A DNA stretch of 47,623 nucleotides. Source: a phage. A program made the translations under genes and the position numbers. This document shows positions 2,592 through 45,451 of the stretch, piece by piece (the stretch's first letter is position 1; every line of letters starts with the position of its first letter). The DNA lies in sequence record PZ445468.1; one strand, 5' to 3'. The notes under the pieces were generated by a model, which saw only the letters and a list, made by a program, of their open reading frames with translations, did not search any database and was not told the origin of the DNA.

Positions 2592-2759
2592 ATGATTATT
2601 GAAGGTAAAATTTTTACTGATTTGTCGGTCAGCGAGATAAAAGAAAAATTTTCAATGAACATCAACCAGGAAGGCGATGCAATTATCATCGACAAACACC
2701 AGGCCGCACAGCTCATCGAAGTCCTGCAGCGTTGGATTAATGGTGAGAAGATTGAGTGA
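2592..2759 (+). CDS. hypothetical protein (55 aa)
   Basis: short ORF read by eye, GAGGTGA RBS, stop overlaps next start (TGATG). Confidence 0.4.
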   Translation: MIIEGKIFTDLSVSEIKEKFSMNINQEGDAIIIDKHQAAQLIEVLQRWINGEKIE

Positions 2760-2947
2760 TGAGCGTTTATTTTATTCATGCTGAAGCCGTGCTGAGTAAC
2801 GGCTGCGTTGCTGAGAAGATAGGAAGAATCGCAATTGCTGATAGCGCCGTGACGGCGTTCGATGGATTCTTTTCTGATGCTACGGTTGCCAAGCTACGAG
2901 AGCAAGGTATTGAAGTTGTAATTGATAAATTCGAAAAGGTGGAGTGA
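2759..2947 (+). CDS. hypothetical protein (62 aa)
   Basis: ORF with overlapping start/stop coupling. Confidence 0.4.
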   Translation: MSVYFIHAEAVLSNGCVAEKIGRIAIADSAVTAFDGFFSDATVAKLREQGIEVVIDKFEKVE

Positions 2948-3108
2948 TGGCACTATTCTGGTCGTTCTGGATTCCATTTAACTTTATGTTCTGGTGGGCT
3001 ATGGCCGCCGGAGTGAATGAACCAAGCATGCTACACTTCATGATCGGTTCATTTTTCGCGGTGGTAACTGGTATTGTGCCATGTTTACTGTATCAATATT
3101 TCAAATAG
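2947..3108 (+). CDS. small hydrophobic membrane protein (53 aa)
   Basis: short ORF read by eye; W/F-rich hydrophobic sequence; GGAG RBS. Confidence 0.35.
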   Translation: MALFWSFWIPFNFMFWWAMAAGVNEPSMLHFMIGSFFAVVTGIVPCLLYQYFK

Positions 3109-34669: not shown

Positions 34670-35716
34670 TTAAAATCCTTCAATTGGGGTTGGTTTATGT
34701 TCGGTTTTTTCTTCCTGTGGTTCTGGCTGTTGGGGTTGCGGTTTAGCCAGTTTTGCAGGGTTGAAGTTATCTTGCGGTGTGATTACCACAGGAGATAATT
34801 GCTCATCATTGATGAAAGACTCAATGCGATCATATTCAGTAGCAGAAGCAGCGAGAGAAGGCCAGATTGCACGAATCTTATCTTTCAGGTTATCAGGTAT
34901 TGATTTTGCCTCTTCCTTCAGGCCTTCCATGCCTTTTGCGGCAGAGAGCTGAAGTCGTGAGCGCCATGACTCAAACTCTTCGTCAACTTTAACTCCAGAG
35001 TCCACCCATTTGATGAGTCCGCGACCATGTGCCTCGCCAATGTATCCATGTCGAACGCTTTCACGACCAGACTCAAAGAAGATTGGGCGTAGTTCTTCTG
35101 GTAATTTGGTGAACTCCTGAATTTTTCCTCCATCGTGCATCATCATGCTCACAGTCATTTCGAACATGAAGTCTTTCTCGCACACTGGCTGTAACCCAAG
35201 TGATACAGGCTCCTTCGGGTTTGCGAAATCAGTTTTCTGGCGAGCACGAAGACATACAATGATATGCATATTGCTTTGCAGCATGGCATTCATAAACTTC
35301 TTGTGTTCAGCTTTGGCGCGCTTCCAGTCAGCCATCTTTTTGCCGTTAAGCAACGGCTTTTCAGCAATCTCCGTGCAACTCCCTTCCCCTTCCCATTCGT
35401 GCGAGCCTGAATCAATAACAAGAACCTTAACGCCAGCAGCCTGAAACTCTTCAATGGCCTGACGGTAACGAGCAGGACTGAATGGAGCATACATATCAGC
35501 ATGCAGGAATTTACCATCAAGGATGTTTGAGTACAGGCGACCGCGACCGTTTTCAGTATCAAGGAATCCGATTTCTTCTGGTGAGTCAACCATCCCGCGA
35601 GCAAGCTTAAGTGCGCTATATGTTTTCCCGCTACCAGACTGGCCTGAAATACCGATTACCACACGAGAACCGGAACGCTCTGCTGGTTTTATATTGAGAA
35701 TACCCATTTGCATCAC
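34670..35716 (-). CDS. P-loop ATPase (RecA-like recombination ATPase)
   Basis: Walker A GQSGSGKT. Confidence 0.55.
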   Translation of the reverse strand: MMQMGILNIKPAERSGSRVVIGISGQSGSGKTYSALKLARGMVDSPEEIGFLDTENGRGRLYSNILDGKFLHADMYAPFSPARYRQAIEEFQAAGVKVLVIDSGSHEWEGEGSCTEIAEKPLLNGKKMADWKRAKAEHKKFMNAMLQSNMHIIVCLRARQKTDFANPKEPVSLGLQPVCEKDFMFEMTVSMMMHDGGKIQEFTKLPEELRPIFFESGRESVRHGYIGEAHGRGLIKWVDSGVKVDEEFESWRSRLQLSAAKGMEGLKEEAKSIPDNLKDKIRAIWPSLAASATEYDRIESFINDEQLSPVVITPQDNFNPAKLAKPQPQQPEPQEEKTEHKPTPIEGF

Positions 35717-36700: not shown

Positions 36701-37135
36701 TCAATCCACATCAAAAGGCAAGCCAAAATAGAAAAGTGTGGCTTTTTTTAGTTCATCAAGTCCATAAGCGATGGCGGCATAATGACCAAGCCTACACATC
36801 TCTGTTAGCACATCCGATTGCTCCTTGCTCACTCTGCTTTTACTTTTATCGCGGCGCTTTGACTCAATCATTCCGCAACTGTGATTTACACCCGGAGTCA
36901 TTATTACGTTGTCGCCTATTCCAGTCTTAACTCCCATCTTCTGGCGCTTCAGCACAAACTGCACTCTGCTTGATGTGCCAGTTTCGTTTGGTACATGAAA
37001 CCACAGAACATCAGGGAATCGGTGTTGCATCCATGTGCCGTAACCCATCTGGTCAGTCTCCTCTTTAGGACACTCACCACGATAACCGCTATCAAATACC
37101 CATATACCGCTATCAAGCTGCTTCACTTTGCTCAC
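36701..37135 (-). CDS. VRR-NUC domain nuclease
   Basis: 144-aa ORF with D ... E-x-K pattern (GIGDNVI ... GMIESKR). Confidence 0.45.
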   Translation of the reverse strand: MSKVKQLDSGIWVFDSGYRGECPKEETDQMGYGTWMQHRFPDVLWFHVPNETGTSSRVQFVLKRQKMGVKTGIGDNVIMTPGVNHSCGMIESKRRDKSKSRVSKEQSDVLTEMCRLGHYAAIAYGLDELKKATLFYFGLPFDVD

Positions 37136-39050
37136 CTGTAAAATCTTTTCTGTGGATTATGTCTCGGCCTTTATCATTAATACGATGCGTGATGCGTTTT
37201 GGCGATTTAATCAATCCAGCATACATCATGAATTGTTTTGCGTTCTGGCATTTCAGTATTTTCCCAGCCATTGACTTATCATCAAGGTGAGGAAAGATAG
37301 CCTTTGCCTTAAACATGTTTTTCATGTGAGTTGCGCCGCTATAAGGGTAGAAAACCTCGCTAGCCCATCCTTCTTTTCCGTCACAACGATTAATCCAGTA
37401 GCGATATAAAACCCCCTCTCCATCCTTCGTTAACTGAACCTTGAAATCCATAACGTCAGCCCATTCATTATCCGTATACGCACGCTCATTCAGTGCCGCA
37501 TTAGGGTCGCGCAGAACATGATCGCAATGTCGGCAATAACGCGCAGTAGGGTCATTTTTAGTCCCGCAACCATCATCAAAAATCCGTATTCCATGCTTGT
37601 CGAAACCGCAACGAATGTAGCTGAAAAATTCTTCGCATCGACCATCTGGCGATAGTACATCTTTGCCAATGCAGCGGCGCGCATATGGGCTGTTCATTGT
37701 TCCGCATTTCGGGCACGGAACCTGTTCACCACTGCGCCTTGAACGCTGAGCCTCAGCTTCTTCCAGAATCGGGTCTTCATACAGCTGACCAAGCTCAAAC
37801 ATCGTGCCTGAGAAATCAAGAACCAGATGGTCTTCTTTATGATACCCAGCATCAATTTGCTCCTTCTTCAGCAGGCGCATACCGCGACCAAGCAACTGGA
37901 CAAGGAGAGTTAGCGACATTATTTTCCTGAGGATTACGCTTACATCCCATAGCGGAATGTTTACTCCGGTCGTCAGCGCGGCTATCTGGAATGTGTATTT
38001 TATTTTGCCAGTGTACGCATCCTTTAGAGCCTTACGTCTGGCTTTTTGCCCCATATCTTCGGTGACAATAGCGTAGCTACCTTCTGGCAGATATTTAGCA
38101 GCTTCTAAACAATGCTTCTTGCCTGCGCAGGTAATTAACACTCCATTTCTATCTTTTGTAAGCTCCATCACTTTGAGCATGATTTTCTGTGTGAGAGTAC
38201 CTTGCTCAAGGATTTCTTCCTGCATCTGCTTAAGTTGTTCGGCAGTGAAGTCCTGCGTTCCGTCGATATCAGATCCACGGAATGCTGAAAGGTCGTAATG
38301 CAAATCATCAACATCATGAAGGCCAAAGATTGTTGGAACAACAAATCCGCGATCTACCATGTACTTTGTGTCAATGTTTATTATTTCATTCTTCCAGTAC
38401 GCACCTTTCATTGATTCAGTGCCACGGAATGGGCTTCCGGTGAATCCAATTGTTATCATTTCATGACCATGTTTTGCCTTGCATCTCCTGTTAAGTTCCG
38501 TAAGTATTACACCATATTGTGTTGTTGGATTCTCACTAATAATGTCCTGCCACGGAACTTGGTGCCCTTCATCGCACAGGCAAAATCTGGGGGCAAAATC
38601 ACTCAATCCACCTTTCTTAACGTCACCACTTGATTCATCTTTTTTATCAAAAAGTGCGTTAACGATTGTTCCTTCAGTTCCGCATATAATAGGGTATGCT
38701 GTACTTTTCCTGCCAAGAGATGCGCTATAAAGAGAATTTTTTACACCGCACTCCCACATCATTTCAGCATTCTGCTCTGCTATTTCCCCCTGCCTTGAAA
38801 TAACAAGGCCATCCCACCCCATATCCTGAAATCTACTGCAAAGCATTGAAATTATCACGGTCTTTCCTGATGAAACCGACGCTGTAACATAGCTTGGTTC
38901 AGGTTTCTTGCCAAAATTACGAATAACCTCAGCGCACTTTGCGTAAACAAGCCATTGGTAATCATATGGCTCTATGGAGCCTAATTTTATTGATTGCTTT
39001 AACTTCTCAATATTAATCTCTGAAATCATTTTGTCTATTTTGTTCATCAC
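37113..39050 (-). CDS. DExH-box superfamily II helicase
   Basis: Walker A SSGKT, DEGH motif II, C-terminal Cys4 zinc-finger pairs. Confidence 0.75.
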   Translation of the reverse strand: MMNKIDKMISEINIEKLKQSIKLGSIEPYDYQWLVYAKCAEVIRNFGKKPEPSYVTASVSSGKTVIISMLCSRFQDMGWDGLVISRQGEIAEQNAEMMWECGVKNSLYSASLGRKSTAYPIICGTEGTIVNALFDKKDESSGDVKKGGLSDFAPRFCLCDEGHQVPWQDIISENPTTQYGVILTELNRRCKAKHGHEMITIGFTGSPFRGTESMKGAYWKNEIINIDTKYMVDRGFVVPTIFGLHDVDDLHYDLSAFRGSDIDGTQDFTAEQLKQMQEEILEQGTLTQKIMLKVMELTKDRNGVLITCAGKKHCLEAAKYLPEGSYAIVTEDMGQKARRKALKDAYTGKIKYTFQIAALTTGVNIPLWDVSVILRKIMSLTLLVQLLGRGMRLLKKEQIDAGYHKEDHLVLDFSGTMFELGQLYEDPILEEAEAQRSRRSGEQVPCPKCGTMNSPYARRCIGKDVLSPDGRCEEFFSYIRCGFDKHGIRIFDDGCGTKNDPTARYCRHCDHVLRDPNAALNERAYTDNEWADVMDFKVQLTKDGEGVLYRYWINRCDGKEGWASEVFYPYSGATHMKNMFKAKAIFPHLDDKSMAGKILKCQNAKQFMMYAGLIKSPKRITHRINDKGRDIIHRKDFTGEQSEAA

Positions 39051-39622
39051 CTACTCCTGCTAAAATCACCGTGTAATGATTTTCTATATTTCTTTATGGC
39101 GTTACCTGCTTCCTCTGCTGTATTAAAGTAACCAAGATTAAATCTCCTGCCGTTAACCGCTATCCTTGCTCTCCACTTTTTACTTTTTGCATCAAAGCCA
39201 ACCCCTTTAAATCCAGATTGGTTATCAATTCTGATTTTCCTATTCATGCAGTTTTCGCTTGGTTTTGCCTCTCTTAAATTTAAGATGGCGTTATTTGATT
39301 TATCTAAGTCGATATGGTCAATCTCAAATTAAGGCCACTTCCCGTTAACATAAAACCATGCAAGTCTGTGGGCCATAAACCTGTATCCACCTATAACTAT
39401 GCGTACATATCCGGTATTCTCAACATATCCAGCTCTCGGTGAGTTACTGTGATTACCATTTCTCCACGTAAAAATTCCTGTTGATTTTTCATAATTAATT
39501 TTTGATTTAAGAAACTCATGGCTTAGCGATGACTCCTTTTGCTTTCTTCTCTCTAAATTTCTTGACTCTGCACCTGACAGAGCAGCACTTCGCCTTTGCA
39601 GTTCCGATGAACTCATTTCCAC
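39047..39622 (-). pseudogene. HNH-AP2 homing endonuclease interrupted by in-frame TAA
   Basis: both halves align to intact paralogue at 47116..; TAA at 39329-39331 sits where paralogue has E/K. Confidence 0.6.
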
Positions 39623-39665: not shown

Positions 39666-39729
39666 ATTGTAACGATTAATTGTTTCATTTCAAGTAACGA
39701 TTGATTGTTTCATGCGAGTAAATTACAAT
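39666..39729. promoter_or_regulatory. divergent promoters with tandem 18-bp repeats
   Basis: leftward TTGAAA-16-TACAAT; rightward TTGATT-17-TACAAT; AACGATT(A/G)ATTGTTTCAT twice. Confidence 0.45.
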
Positions 39730-39760
39730 GATTCTACATCATCGTCAACAGGAAGATTTT

Positions 39761-40714
39761 ATGAGATACGACTGGAAAGACATTGAGCCAAAAATGCTCG
39801 GAAATTGGCAGGCCGCCATCATGTCTATCGTCAATGTGGATAGCAGAGTTTTCAATGGCAAGCACCAGCCATGCCCGTCATGCTCAGGAAAAGACAGATA
39901 TCGCTTTGATGATAACTTCGAAACAAAAGGCGATGGCGGCGCAATATGCAATCAGTGCGGGTCCGGCAGCGGCATGAACTGGCTGATGAAACTTTCAGGC
40001 ATGAACTTCCCTGAAGCACTGGAGGCGCTTGGTGGATTCCTGAACATGCACCCACGCGAAAAGCTGGAGGCAATCAGGAAGGAACTACCGAAGATAAATT
40101 ACAACGATGACTTCATCACCGAGCAGGAAGTAGCCGCAATCATGTCTAAAACGACGCGTGTCGCGATGAGTGAGTGGACTTTGATAAATGGTATTGGTTG
40201 CGACGTTAGCGTCGTCAGAGGGAAATCTGGGGAGCTTATTGCGGTTGAGATGGTGCGCGCTGACACAATGAGTCCGTGCAACGTGGCATTCATTGGCATG
40301 GATGGTGATGCATTCAGAACATTCTACAAAGCAGGATATAACAAAGACTCAGCCATAAACGGCAAACTCACACGAGGCGCGATAAGCCCAATCGGAGAAG
40401 ATAACGGAAAGTTCATTTATCTGGTGTCTGATTATGCCGACGCGTGGAAATGCCATTACTTCACTGGCGCGCATGTCTGGTGCTGCTGGTCGCCGGAAAA
40501 TATGTGGGAAGTGGTGCGCTCGGTTAGCGGTGAGACGAAAGCAAGGTTACGCTGCATAGTTAATTATAAATTTGACGAGCTTTGCGCTGCGGAAAATGCA
40601 GGACTTCCGGTGATGCTGCCTGATGATTCCGACACAATCAGGATGGCGAAGCGAATCAGAAGAAAGATTTATGACGCTGGCGAGTTGATAGAGAAGATCT
40701 CAGTTTGCAGATAA
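39761..40714 (+). CDS. putative DNA primase (zinc-ribbon)
   Basis: N-terminal CPSC ... CNQC zinc-binding motif; AGGAAG RBS. Confidence 0.5.
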   Translation: MRYDWKDIEPKMLGNWQAAIMSIVNVDSRVFNGKHQPCPSCSGKDRYRFDDNFETKGDGGAICNQCGSGSGMNWLMKLSGMNFPEALEALGGFLNMHPREKLEAIRKELPKINYNDDFITEQEVAAIMSKTTRVAMSEWTLINGIGCDVSVVRGKSGELIAVEMVRADTMSPCNVAFIGMDGDAFRTFYKAGYNKDSAINGKLTRGAISPIGEDNGKFIYLVSDYADAWKCHYFTGAHVWCCWSPENMWEVVRSVSGETKARLRCIVNYKFDELCAAENAGLPVMLPDDSDTIRMAKRIRRKIYDAGELIEKISVCR

Positions 40715-40717
40715 AGG

Positions 40718-40742
40718 AAACCATCCAGTTGGAGGGTTTTTG
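40718..40742 (+). terminator. rho-independent terminator
   Basis: AAACCATCCAGTTGGAGGGTTTTTG. Confidence 0.5.
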
Positions 40743-40813
40743 TTATTCATTGAACTCTGGCGCTTCAGTCCAGAAGTGCTCAGGTAAAATTTTAAGTTCG
40801 TGTGTTTTGCTCA

Positions 40814-42406
40814 TCACAACCCCCTCATAAATCTCATGCGCTTAACGGCAGCGGAAAGATAATTTCTAACCGTTGAGTTCATCCGCAGGCCATCCCATGA
40901 ACCATCACTACACATCTTAATTGCTCTTGGATTATCCCTGTCCAGCATTAGTGGTGAATGTTTGTTCTCCTCAATGGCAAGAAGAACCTCATAAACAAAC
41001 TTATCAGGTGTTAGTGTGATGTTATTAGAGTCAGCAGAATTGATTATCTTTTCAACTCTGTCACGGCACAGCTTGTTCTTTATAACAGACAAATAAGGCG
41101 TTTTAATGAATGCCTGTGATTCACAAATTCGCTTTATTTTTTCAACAATATTCGACCACTCAGTATTCTCAAGTCCATCAAATGCCTGTTCACCCTCAAG
41201 GAATCTTTTCAGCCCTGACAGGTGTTCAAGAACCGTGATATAACCCCACTCGATATGCTCCATCGTCACTGATGGTGTCATTCCCTGCCGACTTGACAGA
41301 TCGGTATACGCCGCCAGAGTTGCAAGATCGACAATCATTAGACCCATACGAGGGATAACATCACCAACAACACCATCGCAATCACCAAGCTCACTTTCCA
41401 GTTTCATAGACAGAGATCGGTGCAGTTTTTTAGCATTATCATCAGCCCATACAACGTGAGTTTTCGCGGTAAGAACCCTACCTTTCCACTCATTGATTAT
41501 TTTTCTTGAAAGCGTACCACTCACTTCCACATCCTTCATCGCTGGCATTTCCTCACCAGCAAGATGTCCAAGCTGGAACAGCACGCGCCCCATACCGCCA
41601 TCTTTCTGCCATGAACGCGCAGCATCTATTCCCTGCTCTGGTGTGACAGTAATCAGCGGAACAAATTTTGCGTTTTCAATTCCACCTTCTTTTGTTGCAA
41701 TTTCGTACTCATTCATTGCCGACTTTAGTGCTCTCCCAACGCTGTGGTCCATCATCGCAAGACGCTTATAATCTATGACTCCTTTCCCGTCATCTCCACC
41801 AGTAAGTGGCACTATCCATCCCTCTGCGCTTGCTGCCGCCATGATGCGTTTTGGGTTTTGTTCCCACGTAAGGTTTTCAAGCAACTCCTTTATTATTGGT
41901 CTATTAGGAACCCACACGCCGCCATCAGTTAGGGCTCTATACCACGCCATAGTGCCGCCAAGATATGCATTGCGCGGGTTGTTCCAGTCTTCAAGATGTT
42001 GCTTGTCATCGTTCACAACGTAGAGCAAAGACCCACCTCCGGCAATCAGGTCTAACTGCATCTGTTTCGTCGATGTTGATTTGGATGCGCAAACTCTGGA
42101 CCCTATTCCCAGCGCATTGGCATACGCCCTGACGAAACTCACCGGTGCACCCTTACCTGCACCAGAGCGAGCCACGAGAAATATTCCAGTATTGCAGATA
42201 CTACCTGTTGGACCAATCAAGTATCGTCCAGCCATCGCCTGAGCAAGACCCAACGCGCCAGTTAAACGATATCTTCCCCCTCCCTCACGGCGCTCAAACC
42301 CCCTTGCGATCTCATCCATAAACTCACCAAGTGCCCCGGGAGCATCCCGCTTTATGCCCATAGCCAGAGACTCAAAATCAATCGAACTCATCAATACACC
42401 CTCCAT
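40814..42406 (-). CDS. hypothetical protein (530 aa), possible replication protein
   Basis: large ORF next to iteron region; Gly-rich SGAGKG loop not a canonical Walker A. Confidence 0.4.
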   Translation of the reverse strand: MEGVLMSSIDFESLAMGIKRDAPGALGEFMDEIARGFERREGGGRYRLTGALGLAQAMAGRYLIGPTGSICNTGIFLVARSGAGKGAPVSFVRAYANALGIGSRVCASKSTSTKQMQLDLIAGGGSLLYVVNDDKQHLEDWNNPRNAYLGGTMAWYRALTDGGVWVPNRPIIKELLENLTWEQNPKRIMAAASAEGWIVPLTGGDDGKGVIDYKRLAMMDHSVGRALKSAMNEYEIATKEGGIENAKFVPLITVTPEQGIDAARSWQKDGGMGRVLFQLGHLAGEEMPAMKDVEVSGTLSRKIINEWKGRVLTAKTHVVWADDNAKKLHRSLSMKLESELGDCDGVVGDVIPRMGLMIVDLATLAAYTDLSSRQGMTPSVTMEHIEWGYITVLEHLSGLKRFLEGEQAFDGLENTEWSNIVEKIKRICESQAFIKTPYLSVIKNKLCRDRVEKIINSADSNNITLTPDKFVYEVLLAIEENKHSPLMLDRDNPRAIKMCSDGSWDGLRMNSTVRNYLSAAVKRMRFMRGL

Positions 42407-42720
42407 ACGCGCAAGAATTTACCCTGGATAACACCCTGTTTCACCGTTAACACAGCACCCACCCTGTCAGCCTCAATTTTTAGCGCCTTCTGAAGTGACG
42501 CCATTGTCATCTGAAAACCTCGCTCTATGTCGTATGCGTAGCACCCATCTCTGCCCCCAATCAAAATTGAAGTTGAATACCCGTTCTCAAAGTAAAACTG
42601 ACACCCATCAGGAGCGGTAAGATTATTTATCACGTCGTGAGCAAGCGATGTCGTAACAGGGAATATCGGCGCGCAACTCATACTCACCTCACCCAACTCG
42701 CTTAATGTGCAAAACTTCAT
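42391..42720 (-). CDS. hypothetical protein (109 aa)
   Basis: ORF. Confidence 0.4.
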   Translation of the reverse strand: MKFCTLSELGEVSMSCAPIFPVTTSLAHDVINNLTAPDGCQFYFENGYSTSILIGGRDGCYAYDIERGFQMTMASLQKALKIEADRVGAVLTVKQGVIQGKFLRVWRVY

Positions 42721-42937
42721 CGAAATATGAGCACGTTCTGAATTTCATCCCAAAATCCTCACCAACCCTTCCGAGACACGCGCGAAATCTTTCAACAGAC
42801 ATCACTTTATCTGCAATATCCTCATAAGAAATCGAATTAACCTGACCAACATCCATATGTTTTGCAACGCGATACACGAATTCCATCTTTGAACCATCAC
42901 GGTACATTTTGTTTCTCATAGACACCTCCATCCGCAT
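42689..42937 (-). CDS. hypothetical protein (82 aa)
   Basis: ORF. Confidence 0.4.
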   Translation of the reverse strand: MRMEVSMRNKMYRDGSKMEFVYRVAKHMDVGQVNSISYEDIADKVMSVERFRACLGRVGEDFGMKFRTCSYFDEVLHIKRVG

Positions 42938-43084
42938 TCCAACAGGAACTATAGATAAAAAATAAAATTAGCGCAACACAAAACAGGTCTAACCAGCAAT
43001 AATAGCTACCACACTTAACAACTGGTCAGACCACCATCTCGTATCTGATATATGTGGATGGTGCACGTCGTTCAATTTGTGCTC

Positions 43085-43443
43085 GATTTTTACCTAATTT
43101 ACCGTATATTTATTAGTCAGTTTTTTGCATAACCAATTGATTTATATGATTTTACCTGTTTTACCGGAAATCTAATGAGTATTTTCATCATTGAGAGTAG
43201 TAGTATATTAATTGGTCTAATTTTTAAAGAACTCTAATAAAATCAATATATTAATATAAGAAAGTAACTTACTTACTTATATAGGATTTACCGGGTAAAA
43301 CCGGTAACTCCTCCGCAGTCCGCGTCATTACTGGATTGATTTTTACCACCTGTAGGTAAATACAGTAGTTTTTAAGTCAGGATTGTTTTGTAAGATGTTG
43401 ATTACCGGTACTTTATTTGAAAAACCGGGATTTACCGGGTTTT
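43085..43443. repeat. iteron array (TTTACC / ACCGG core), putative origin
   Basis: at least 10 direct and inverted copies of GATTT(T)ACC(G/T), including palindromes TTACCGG-N6-CCGGTAA and TACCGGTA. Confidence 0.55.
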
Positions 43444-43516
43444 TGTGGTGTGATTAATAATCGCGCAATTAGCCATGTTTCACCAGAACTCACTGATGCG
43501 ACACCTGAAAATCGCA

Positions 43517-43545
43517 TTGACGTAGAATTACAACTGATGTAGATT
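43517..43545 (+). promoter_or_regulatory. sigma70-like early promoter TTGACG-17-TAGATT
   Basis: hexamers 30 nt upstream of first early ORF; second motif copy overlaps. Confidence 0.5.
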
Positions 43546-43722: not shown

Positions 43723-43814
43723 CAGGCGCAAAACTCGAGCTTATCGCCAGTCTGGTTATCTTGGCATTCATCATTATCGCAGTGGCAGTTTCAAAATCAG
43801 GGTATGAGAGGTGA
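43719..43814 (+). CDS. small membrane protein (31 aa)
   Basis: short hydrophobic ORF, ATGA overlap. Confidence 0.25.
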   Translation: MTGAKLELIASLVILAFIIIAVAVSKSGYER

Positions 43815-43899
43815 AATGAGCAATTGGCATAACGAACATATCATGCAGTGGTATCGCCGTAGCATCAAGGCAATCATTAACTCTTATGAGGTTTAACAA

Positions 43900-44846: not shown

Positions 44847-45451
44847 GCGAGATTAATTACCAGGCTCTGCGTGAAGCGGCGGAGAAGGCGACGAAAGGCC
44901 GGTGGGCTGTTGAGTTCGACGATGAGATTTACTCCACTGACGGCGTGAACCATGAGCAAATAGCCATGGTATTCAGTGAAAACGAAGCGCGTGATGCTGC
45001 ATTTATCGCCGCAGCCAACCCCGCCACCGTGCTGGCGCTGCTGGATGAGCTGGAGAAGACGCAGGCGCAATCGTCAAAGTGGTGCGAAGCCTTCCATAAA
45101 GCCGTATCGGTTGGTGCTCGCTATGAAGAGCGCATAGCAGAACTGGAGGGGGACGCATTCAATCCCGCAATTATTGATGTGGTAGCAGAACGCCAGCGGC
45201 AACAGTCGGTTGAAGGATGGACTCCTGAACATGACAACGCATATCAAAATAGCGAATTAGCAGATGCAGCGGCTTGTTACGCAATTCATGCGCACAACCA
45301 AGGTTTCTCCACTCCAGCACATTGGCCGTGGTCTCCTGACTGGTGGAAGCAATCAGGAGCACGCCGCGACTTAGTAAAAGCTGGCGCTCTTATTCTGGCA
45401 GAAATTGAACGTATTGACCGCGCCGCTGGCATTGGCGTGAAGGGGGAGTGA
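44843..45451 (+). CDS. Ead/Ea22-like protein
   Basis: N-terminal ALREAAEKAT ... NPATVLALLDELE pattern. Confidence 0.5.
   Translation: MSEINYQALREAAEKATKGRWAVEFDDEIYSTDGVNHEQIAMVFSENEARDAAFIAAANPATVLALLDELEKTQAQSSKWCEAFHKAVSVGARYEERIAELEGDAFNPAIIDVVAERQRQQSVEGWTPEHDNAYQNSELADAAACYAIHAHNQGFSTPAHWPWSPDWWKQSGARRDLVKAGALILAEIERIDRAAGIGVKGE

Follow-up and report, generated by a model that had tools for sequence, protein, structure and literature searches.

The stretch of DNA analysed here (the window, 47,623 nucleotides) is the complete genome of Escherichia phage TanjaMuster_Bas81 (PQ850630.1). Three open reading frames are present on its minus strand at the coordinates claimed beforehand (Table 1), next to iteron-like repeats, and this part of the original prediction was confirmed by the coordinates, ribosome-binding sites and homologues of the genes, as well as by the enrichment and conservation of the TTACC sequence described below. 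The ribosome-binding sites make it likely that the proteins are 525, 96 and 76 aa long, and not 530, 109 and 82 aa as in the longest forms. As read from the sequence, the 525-aa protein starts with the ATG at 42391, which is preceded by GGAGGG and shares one nucleotide with the stop codon of the upstream reading frame (TGATG), whereas the ATG codons of the 96-aa (42681) and 76-aa (42919) proteins are preceded by GAGGTGAG and GGAGGTG, respectively. These starts are identical to those given in GenBank for Bas81_0085, 0086 and 0087, each of which carries the product label 'hypothetical protein'. The divergent layout that had been proposed for the operon holds, since its three genes point leftward, away from the repeats, and a promoter-like sequence at 43517 is followed by early genes of rightward orientation. 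A promoter scan detected no convincing leftward promoter for the three-gene operon, and a terminator scan found none between the convergent primase and helicase genes. The literature on Bas81 contains a host-range mention only, namely that Retron-Sen3 gives resistance to this phage.

Table 1. Features of the Bas81 replication region (coordinates in the window).
Feature	Coordinates	Strand	Basis or remark
DnaG-type primase (Zn-ribbon)	39728..40714	+	Convergent with the helicase operon; Pfam Zn_Ribbon_Prim E 3.7e-12; PHROG 510 E 1.3e-83
Large gene, longest ORF form	40814-42406	-	530 aa
Middle gene, longest ORF form	42391-42720	-	109 aa
Third gene, longest ORF form	42689-42937	-	82 aa
Bas81_0085, probable MCM-like (DUF3987-type) AAA+ helicase, 525 aa	40814..42391	-	ORF reaches 42406 at its longest
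C-terminal domain, residues 401-525, candidate repeat reader	40817..41191	-	Secondary structure, pI, identity pattern
Stretch from R269 (GGMGR) to R348, both invariant	41348..41587	-	A3 columns
Walker B, D128-D129 (SLLYVVNDD), end of strand 121-127	42005..42010	-	Alignment; secondary structure from the model
Walker A P-loop ARSGAGKG, residues 74-81	42149..42172	-	A3 invariants G79, K80; model
Bas81_0086, 96-aa small protein, long form of its family	42391..42681	-	Translationally coupled to the helicase
Bas81_0087, 76-aa small protein, short paralogue of the 96-aa protein	42689..42919	-	
Helicase-proximal set, four TTACC boxes in two tandem pairs with 9-bp spacing	43089..43165	+	Starts at 43090, 43099, 43152, 43161
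AT-rich centre, candidate DNA-unwinding element	43166..43286	.	GC 15-23% in 60-nt windows
Distal set, seven TTACC boxes including inverted pairs	43287..43436	+ and -	+ at 43288, 43343, 43402, 43432; - at 43294, 43303, 43355
Promoter-like TTGACG-17-TAGATT, rightward early genes	43517..43545	+	Exact right cassette boundary; putative promoter role

In the phage collection that was searched, 11 records matched, and the nine other phages among them have full-length homologues of the large protein (33-97% identity); the analysis thus proposes a function for a gene that is labelled 'hypothetical' in all 11. The match of the 525-aa protein to the Pfam profile DUF3987 (PF13148) covers profile positions 203-344 only and, at 13.5-13.6 bits (E 0.04), falls below the gathering threshold of 27 bits. 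The helicase half of PHROG 3022, 'DNA primase', was matched at E 6e-12, likewise a weak direct match. A search of 1.84 billion representatives with the family profile gave 48 matches, and no more than 10 cluster representatives reached E<=1e-30. Among the distant matches, Pfam (E<=1e-3) recognized DUF3987 in 20 of 35, Prim-Pol in six, NrS-1 HBD in two, and RepB primase and PriCT_2 in one each, and many of the DUF3987-type proteins reached by the profile are fusions to primases. DUF3987 was also detected at E<=0.1 (best 2.6e-10) in six of the 18 members of the family alignment, termed A3, from which the invariant columns discussed below were taken.

The predicted structure, a model of the monomer only, matched 'Replicative DNA helicase [Salmonella phage LPSTLL]' over the full length (TM 0.76/0.80), and a Foldseek search of BFVD returned many entries named 'DUF3987 domain-containing protein' (E down to 6e-9) and phage primase-helicases (E down to 1e-16). 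The type most similar to the AAA+ core of the model was MCM. A sequence search of the PDB, using either the single 525-aa protein or the 18-sequence profile, yielded chance matches only (subtilisin, E 0.17; a designed P-loop protein, E 0.07), and a repeat homologue search, word-indexed and with a wider alignment, recovered the same six proteins again. In Akira and Vi II-E1 the same genomic slot holds a 517-aa DUF3987 'DNA helicase' (E 3e-34). The Akira helicase could not be aligned significantly to the Bas81 protein by BLASTP, HMM-to-sequence comparison or hhalign, and the link between the two is, therefore, made transitively and by structure. Apart from an SF2 helicase (37113-39050), nothing else encoded in the genome is a candidate for the role of ring-shaped replicative helicase. 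We consider it probable that the 525-aa protein is a very divergent DUF3987-type, MCM-like AAA+ replicative helicase of the phage and, most likely, also its origin-recognising initiator. The assignment is a useful annotation within a known helicase family and not a new kind of system, and it leaves the known picture of phage replication unchanged. Homology to a structural protein or an unrelated enzyme family, which would have spoken against the original prediction, was looked for and not seen, and NCBIfam and PADLOC contained no match for any of the three proteins, so that a defence or anti-defence role is without support. A plasmid-type iteron initiator (Rep_3; RepA/RepE/Pi) was considered separately and rejected on the fold, as the protein does not show the two winged helices without a motor ATPase that characterize this class.

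The large protein had been described as having no assignable motif, which proved incorrect, as Walker A, Walker B, and candidates for sensor 1, arginine finger and sensor 2 are all conserved. Its SGAGKG loop (residues 76-81 of the 525-aa form) was rightly said to deviate from a canonical Walker A, but it is nonetheless the P-loop of an AAA+ fold: G79-K80 is invariant in A3, and the model places the loop after a strand (69-73) and before a helix (81-93). In Bas81 the Lys is followed by G81 in place of the usual Ser/Thr; family members have G, Q, S or N at this position, and a [ST]xxGK[DE] loop is found in 27 of the 35 distant relatives. Because the Mg-coordinating Ser/Thr is missing, ATPase competence is not guaranteed, and the P-loop presents a small biochemical puzzle. 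The DD of Walker B has DE as its counterpart in 32 of the 35 distant relatives. The invariant A3 columns include G265, G268, R269 and R348; judging from the motif order and from what is known of MCM, R269 may be the arginine finger (compare SRFD of MCM) and R348 may correspond to sensor 2. Walker B is followed by a long helical insertion (residues 130-240), for which Pfam, searched with the isolated segment, gave nothing at E<=10.

One could argue from the P-loop that the 525-aa protein has degenerated into a catalytically dead AAA+ relic and serves as a scaffold, or that its role lies outside replication, for example in anti-defence or packaging, and the 'hypothetical' labels and the empty PADLOC and NCBIfam searches would fit such a role; we think this very improbable, given that Lys80, R269, R348 and the acidic Walker B persist unchanged or with conservative substitutions in sequences of as little as 18% identity, that primase fusions called DUF3987 by Pfam belong to the wider GK[DE] clade, and that the gene lies where relatives have a canonical helicase, in a genome that, apart from the SF2 helicase, has no second ring-helicase candidate.

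The region between the operon and the early genes has features that look like those of a phage replication origin. The genome has 37 TTTACC hexamers, compared with approximately 17 in the whole genome after shuffling, and nine of the 37 are located between 43089 and 43436; 11 of the 114 TTACC pentamers fall within the 638-bp intergenic region. In a comparison of four related phages, 54 of 55 columns were invariant in the boxes versus 228 of 318 outside them (Fisher p 1.8e-6). Box sets on both sides of an AT-rich centre are present in four other family members as well, and boxes of the same kind occur in KLB16. The cumulative GC skew has its minimum near 43 kb, but the transcription direction changes at the same place, which confounds this signal. 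The matches to Rfam between 40600 and 43700 were chance matches far under the gathering scores, which means that the intergenic region does not correspond to a known RNA. A likely replication origin is thereby assigned to Bas81, which belongs to the BASEL collection, a phage set in wide use.

The box sequence differs among the phages, being GTTACCGG in swi2 and L007, TTACC in L014, GGGAAC in BUCT541 and TTAC[CT]A in KLB16 and L015. Comparison of the helicases showed that the repeat type is tracked by the C-terminal domain (CTD) and not by the ATPase body, within a sample of five phage lineages that includes one non-TTACC type. Over residues 1-400, Bas81 is nearest to BUCT541 of the GGGAAC type (55% identity, versus 44% for swi2 and 39% for L007), whereas over residues 401-525 it is nearest to the TTACC-type phages (65% and 59%, versus 50% for BUCT541). 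The L014 protein, the body of which is equidistant from all (33-37%), has a CTD that is 40-47% identical to those of the TTACC-type phages and 33% identical to that of BUCT541. The CTD has a pI of 8.8 and ends in a basic helix (506-524), and the model predicts a helix-helix-helix-hairpin order at 434-493; from this secondary-structure order the domain is a candidate winged helix, although Pfam found nothing at E<=10 when searched with the isolated CTD. The most helix-like stretch of the CTD (462-474) shows fair conservation in the phage with GGGAAC boxes as well, which counts against the CTD as the reader of the repeats. The covariation nevertheless suggests that the 525-aa protein may bind the repeats, and the related helicases with differing repeats and a tracking CTD provide a natural test set for origin reading by MCM-like self-loading helicases.

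Alternatively, a small protein could be the binder. According to this hypothesis, the 525-aa protein is the replicative helicase only, while the 76-aa and/or the 96-aa protein binds the TTACC boxes as an origin-binding protein, loader or autoregulator and delivers the helicase to the melted origin. The small genes lie directly upstream of the helicase gene and are translationally coupled, and a homologous protein of 88-92 aa is encoded at the same position in swi2, BUCT541 and L007 (76-aa protein versus the 92-aa protein of BUCT541, BLASTP E 1e-7). The 76-aa protein also matches PHROG 28700 (E 1.3e-5) and is found by the family HMM at 6.8e-26, a value to be read with the fact that the protein is itself a row of the source alignment. 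At the equivalent position, L014 has a 71-aa ORF without detectable similarity to the small-protein family (HMM E 0.18), and Akira-type cassettes have a small ORF that matches AP2 below threshold (E 6e-4). However, KLB16 and L015 have a helicase and repeats but no small-protein homologue, and the AP2 gene of Vi II-E1 is a pseudogene. In addition, although the TTACC core is common to Bas81, swi2 and L007, the small proteins of Bas81 share no more than 22-32% identity with their counterparts in the other two phages and show no clear tracking of the repeat type, and their pI is near neutral (7.6-9.0). We therefore regard such a division of labour as rather unlikely. Because the more distant cassettes of the family do without them, the small paralogues are best viewed as accessory, either regulators or loading cofactors.

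Another scenario is that the TTACC boxes are operators of divergent early promoters, that no origin is located here, and that the helicase has its role elsewhere, such as in replication that depends on recombination and involves the exonuclease VIII and AAA_24 recombination genes. The boxes do lie between divergent operons and adjoin the promoter-like site, a complete set of recombination proteins is encoded in the genome (exonuclease VIII, AAA_24 protein, RusA and SSB), and the GC skew cannot distinguish an origin from a switch in transcription direction. On the other hand, two sets of boxes around a core of 15-23% GC, with 9-bp tandem and inverted pairs, suit an iteron origin better, and the same layout is repeated upstream of the helicase gene in relatives that have different boxes. 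Moreover, exchange of the helicase includes the boxes but not the rightward promoter, which remains part of the conserved flank. This scenario is improbable in our opinion.

The 525-aa protein was compared with systems of known or predicted function. DUF3987 proteins have been predicted to be replicative helicases of SF6 that carry a C-terminal wHTH, and an AEP or DnaG primase is usually adjacent to or fused with them (PMC4889955); Bas81 likewise has a neighbouring DnaG-type primase, which is presumed to be the partner of the helicase, and the convergent arrangement recurs in swi2, BUCT541 and L007-L009. Helicase activity was demonstrated for the PriCT-DUF3987 protein AgaPH, which binds its primase and needs GK[ST] in Walker A and DE in Walker B (PMC11724360). 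With AgaPH, Akira gp02 and Vi II-E1 VIP0048 the Bas81 protein shares remote profile homology, the MCM-like AAA+ core, a length of approximately 520 aa and conservation of the Walker A Lys, the acidic Walker B and a G-x-G-R motif, and with the latter two also the slot, which converges with a DnaG-type primase and has a repeat-rich intergenic region upstream of it. It differs in having GKG instead of GKT in Walker A and DD instead of DE in Walker B. As read from the sequence, the long helical insertion of Akira gp02 lies between Walker A and Walker B rather than after Walker B, and the AP2-like ORF of the Akira cassette belongs to a family different from that of the Bas81 small proteins. Archaeal and eukaryotic MCM (SF6 AAA+) show the order of Walker A, Walker B, sensor 1, Arg finger and sensor 2 that is also proposed for the Bas81 motifs, again with a helical and hairpin C-terminal domain behind the ATPase, but are only 9-15% identical to the Bas81 protein, the N-terminus of which is modelled as a helical segment of approximately 65 residues (1-65) with no beta-barrel, OB-fold or Zn domain.

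In the SaPI Rep helicases, a C-terminal winged helix binds iterons flanking an AT-rich region and sets the iteron specificity (PMC9371898). The resemblance of Bas81 to SaPI Rep and SCCmec Cch is one of working principle, an AAA+ helicase beside a primase, and with SaPI Rep it extends to an origin in which an AT-rich region is flanked on either side by short iterons of five or six nucleotides (four and seven boxes in Bas81) and to a CTD that covaries with the box type. Unlike the Bas81 boxes, which are upstream of the operon, the SaPI iterons are immediately downstream of rep; Cch is structurally less similar to the Bas81 protein than MCM is; and Bas81 has the extra small paralogous proteins, self-loading in Bas81 being suggested by analogy.

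The alpha protein of satellite phage P4 combines primase, helicase and origin-binding domains in one chain, and its SF3 (D5-like) motor, functionally coupled to the primase, is followed by a C-terminal DNA-binding domain for repeated short origin boxes. By analogy, the Bas81 protein may likewise join a motor to a C-terminal box-reading domain and cooperate with a primase, with the differences that its motor is MCM-like and not SF3, and that the primase is a separate, convergent gene and not part of the chain.

The Bas81 protein would be described best by the term self-loading initiator helicase, partnered with the adjoining DnaG-type primase and presumably binding the repeats itself. The leftward early operon would produce the 76-, 96- and 525-aa proteins, the tight translational coupling of which is seen in the sequence. 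The helicase, judging from its fold, would form a ring ATPase, and its basic CTD would read the TTACC boxes on either side of the AT-rich centre, as the covariation suggests. The AT-rich DNA would then melt, and the helicase would load itself there in the manner of SaPI Rep and recruit the primase. Because no DNA polymerase is annotated in the Bas81 genome, synthesis would be carried out by the host DNA polymerase III. Thus, the original prediction of a replication initiator or regulator appears right with respect to replication, in view of the DUF3987 type, the syntenic slot and the co-inherited repeats, but the protein would be a motor helicase and not a plasmid-type initiator or a regulator.

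A more speculative proposal, which we regard as rather unlikely, is that the locus is a modular origin-and-initiator unit in which the CTD reader and the type of repeat (TTACC, GGGAAC or TTAC[CT]A) are exchanged jointly and without regard to the motor, that the motor comes from a wider clade without the canonical Walker A Ser/Thr (GK[DE], here GKG), and that the duplicated small proteins represent an undescribed class of loading cofactors or regulators. If this is true, the Ser/Thr-less clade would imply an unusual Mg-ATP coordination.

The similarity of Bas81 to its relatives Vi II-E1 and swi2 ends at approximately 40777-40822 and restarts at 43517, which indicates that the helicase, the small proteins and the repeats have been exchanged together. 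The segment of about 40.78-43.52 kb is, therefore, one swappable cassette, for which related phages have substituted another in its entirety, with the primase gene as its conserved left flank. The virulent siphophages of this group thus appear to swap whole origin-plus-helicase cassettes between conserved flanks, which matters for phage taxonomy and engineering and for the reading of defence systems that sense replication proteins.

ORF calling on the window recovered the three ORFs next to the iterons that the original prediction had described. Reading of the minus strand revealed a strong Shine-Dalgarno motif within the 5′ end of each of the three ORFs in its longest form, and the likely products are therefore proteins of 525, 96 and 76 aa, encoded by a translationally coupled operon. 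By megablast, the segment 40000–44000 is 100% identical to Escherichia phage TanjaMuster_Bas81 (Bas81; PQ850630.1, 47,623 bp, circular record), and the window is that entire genome, rotated by ~1 kb. The same three starts are used in its GenBank annotation, where Bas81_0085, 0086 and 0087 are each listed as "hypothetical protein". The family of the 525-aa protein is narrow: full-length homologues (33–97% identity), all labelled hypothetical, were found in nine other phages of E. coli or Klebsiella (11 matching records). The family forms six clusters among 5.8 billion proteins, and its profile retrieved 10 of 1.84 billion representatives at E ≤ 1e-30.

Direct library matches of the 525-aa protein were weak, yet they had one direction in common. 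Pfam DUF3987 gave E 0.04 (13.5 bits; cut-off 27), and PHROG 3022, "DNA primase", gave E 6e-12 over positions 357–712 of 788, which is the non-primase half. The family profile had 48 matches among the 1.84 billion representatives, and the distant ones comprise DUF3987 helicases that stand alone and fusions of a primase with a helicase; 20 of the 35 distant full-length matches carried DUF3987, and the other domains among them were Prim-Pol, NrS-1 polymerase HBD, RepB primase and PriCT_2. An AlphaFold2 model built from an 18-sequence alignment (mean pLDDT 88.5, pTM 0.76) has an AAA+ MCM-like fold. When viral models were searched with Foldseek, it matched "Replicative DNA helicase [Salmonella phage LPSTLL]" over the full length (TM 0.76/0.80), the C-terminal halves of phage primase-polymerases, also as full-length matches, and many "DUF3987 domain-containing protein" entries. 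DUF3987 has been classed as a bacteriophage SF6 helicase family with distant kinship to MCM, whose members usually adjoin or are fused with a primase and have a C-terminal wHTH (PMC4889955), and a PriCT-DUF3987 protein is a Walker-dependent 5′-3′ helicase that binds its own primase (PMC11724360). The helicase reading agrees with this literature, and we regard the 525-aa protein as very probably a DUF3987-type, MCM-like replicative helicase that constitutes a new, highly divergent subfamily within a known helicase family, in an arrangement of known kind.

The catalytic residues are conserved (see table). The SGAGKG loop, which had been set aside as not a canonical Walker A, is the Walker A motif, although it is indeed non-canonical in that its Lys is not followed by Ser/Thr. 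This absence is shared by a wider clade, primase fusions among them, and does not mark decay of the Bas81 protein, because the residue at the corresponding position is acidic (Asp or Glu) in 27 of 35 distant relatives and Ser/Thr in none; Walker B is DE in 32 of the 35. The form [ST]xxGK[DE] runs through a broad DUF3987-like clade (27/35 in the alignment of the distant sequences P0014–P0053), many of them fused to Prim-Pol primases; it places an acidic residue at the usual Ser/Thr site of P-loop NTPases. The candidate sensor 1, arginine finger and sensor 2 were assigned from motif order and invariance, not by superposition.

Features of the helicase operon, its upstream repeats and the 525-aa protein (residues in 525-aa numbering, from the family alignment and model secondary structure)
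Feature	Position	Strand	Remark
525-aa product	ATG at 42391	-	overlaps the upstream stop codon by one base (TGATG)
96-aa product	ATG at 42681	-	starts 7 nt past the stop of the 76-aa gene
76-aa product	ATG at 42919	-	Shine-Dalgarno motif
Proximal boxes	43090, 43099, 43152, 43161	+	four, as two 9-bp tandem pairs
AT-rich stretch	120 bp, after proximal boxes		GC 15-23%
Distal boxes	43288, 43294, 43303, 43343, 43355, 43402, 43432	both	seven
Strand b1	residues 69-73		directly before P-loop
Walker A P-loop	residues 74-81		ARSGAGKG; G79, K80 invariant
Conserved Ser	S107		invariant
Strand b3 and Walker B	residues 121-127, then D128-D129		DD here, DE in distant relatives
Helical insertion	residues 130-240
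Strand b4, candidate sensor 1	residues 242-249		ends ITVT250-P
Candidate arginine finger	GGMGR269		invariant; cf. MCM SRFD
Candidate sensor 2	R348		invariant

The presumed partner of the helicase is the convergent DnaG-type primase. The primase and SF2 helicase genes have ~90% DNA identity between Bas81 and the related phages Akira and Vi II-E1, in which a 517-aa "DNA helicase", a clear DUF3987 protein (E 3e-34), fills the slot between the primase and a repeat-rich intergenic region. No pairwise similarity between the 517-aa and 525-aa proteins was detectable, and the Akira protein has canonical PSAGKT and SDEAS motifs, in contrast to GKG and DD in Bas81. Ahead of the 517-aa helicase lies a small ORF whose AP2 match is below threshold (E 6e-4) and which is a pseudogene in Vi II-E1. 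By blastn, Bas81 ceases to resemble Akira, Vi II-E1 and swi2 at 40777–40822, and its similarity to Vi II-E1 and swi2 restarts exactly at 43517, the −35 element of a promoter-like site (TTGACG-17-TAGATT) serving the rightward genes. These breaks show that the ~2.7 kb holding the helicase, small proteins and repeats is a co-inherited cassette, exchanged as a unit between conserved flanks. As a type of system, this cassette is not new.

The genome contains 37 copies of the hexamer TTTACC, where shuffles predict ~17; nine copies fall within 43089–43436, and 11 of the 114 genomic copies of the core TTACC lie in the 638-bp intergenic region, where they flank an AT-rich centre. In an alignment of Bas81 with Bas77, ZCEC08 and ASO78B, 54 of 55 box columns were invariant, compared with 228 of 318 elsewhere (p 1.8e-6). 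In four other family members the region upstream of the helicase operon also has boxes that flank an AT-rich centre, and boxes of like kind precede the operon of KLB16. The box type is GTTACCGG in swi2 and the metagenomic contig L007, TTACC in L014, GGGAAC in BUCT541 and TTAC[CT]A in KLB16 and L015; the Vi II-E1 repeats (25 nt) are unrelated, and TTACCGG has zero copies in Vi II-E1 and Akira. The Bas81 layout fits the description of SaPI origins, in which six to twelve penta- or hexanucleotide iterons lie around a central AT-rich region and are read by a winged helix in the C-terminal domain of the Rep helicase (PMC9371898).

Two observations favour the helicase as the candidate reader of the boxes. 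The first is discordance between its body (residues 1–400) and C-terminal domain (401–525). Bas81 is 55% identical to BUCT541 in the body and 50% in the C-terminal domain, whereas the values are 44% and 65% with swi2 and 39% and 59% with L007 (both TTACC type), so that its nearest relative is BUCT541 by the body and the TTACC-type phages by the C-terminal domain. L014 has 33–37% and 40–47% identity with TTACC-type phages, as against 34.5% and 33% with BUCT541. Of 26 residues fixed in the TTACC type and different in the GGGAAC type, 16 lie within 400–525, and the differences include a 3-residue insertion in a predicted hairpin (~481–493); this comparison of box type with domain covers a small sample and a single non-TTACC type. 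The second is that KLB16 and L015 have the repeats and the helicase and lack a small-protein homologue. Secondary-structure order makes the C-terminal domain a candidate winged helix.

The 76-aa and 96-aa proteins are paralogues, both akin to a single 88–92-aa protein whose gene precedes that of the helicase in swi2, BUCT541 and L007. Identity comparison revealed no clear tracking of the small proteins with box type. Our working guess is an accessory regulator or loading cofactor.

No gene of Bas81 is annotated as a DNA polymerase; for replication and recombination the phage has the primase, an SF2 helicase, SSB, exonuclease VIII, an AAA_24 protein and RusA. We propose that the ring helicase would bind the boxes through its C-terminal domain, melt the AT-rich core and load itself, and then recruit the primase, with replication passing from helicase and primase to host Pol III. 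This full initiator-helicase model is moderately probable. Recognition of this subfamily closes an annotation gap, and its members form a neat natural experiment in how origins are specified.

Several further features lie in or near the region. A candidate DnaA box (~43040–43060; minus strand CCATCCACA, 7/9 match to the consensus TTATCCACA) sits in the stretch that divides the small-protein gene from the proximal repeats; it is kept in ZCEC08, differs at one base in ASO78B, is absent in Bas77, and is possibly due to chance. The cumulative GC skew of the whole window has its minimum at ~43 kb, at the repeats, but is not independent origin evidence because it coincides with the leftward/rightward transcription switch. 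Two small annotated CDSs, Bas81_0088 (41 aa; 43417–43542, +), over the repeat/promoter region, and BUCT541 gp08 (111 aa; 2679–3014 of sequence L005), spanning the GGGAAC repeats, are probably not real genes. The convergent helicase/primase gap (40715–40830) holds an imperfect hairpin followed by TTTTTG (~40721–40745), uncalled by the terminator scan. Bas77, ZCEC08 and ASO78B have an extra 138-aa gene there (3393–3809 of L010, L011 and L012); its product is an 'RNA-binding protein' in the Bas77 annotation, and that of ASO78B compares it to activating signal cointegrator. The gene is missing from Bas81, where the gap has only a 33–41-aa ORF (Bas81_0084), which suggests a deletion.

Between the SF2 helicase and primase (39047–39622, -), GenBank has no CDS and skips the locus tag Bas81_0082. 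An AP2 domain is clearly recognisable in a 66-aa ORF (39047–39247, -; E 2.8e-9, over the Pfam cut-off), and a 97-aa ORF (39329–39622, -) had no Pfam match. The segment is probably a broken homing endonuclease, because relatives hold one intact HNH endonuclease in this slot (190 aa in L007, HNH_3 plus faint AP2). Two products recorded as 'hypothetical' are a 645-aa SF2 helicase (37113–39050, -; ResIII, Helicase_C and zinc-ribbon matches; PHROG 16, E 7e-74) and a 348-aa AAA_24 protein (34670–35716, -; E 4e-12). For Bas81_0091 (30-aa ORF, ~43757–43849, +; 44852–44944 in the record), the annotation reads 'activator of host PrrC lysyl-tRNA endonuclease' (Stp-like), a tentative call for so short a peptide. 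Retron-Sen3, a type VI retron in which RecBCD surveillance is said to play a part, reportedly protects E. coli against Bas81 and few other BASEL phages (bioRxiv 10.64898/2026.04.27.721009).
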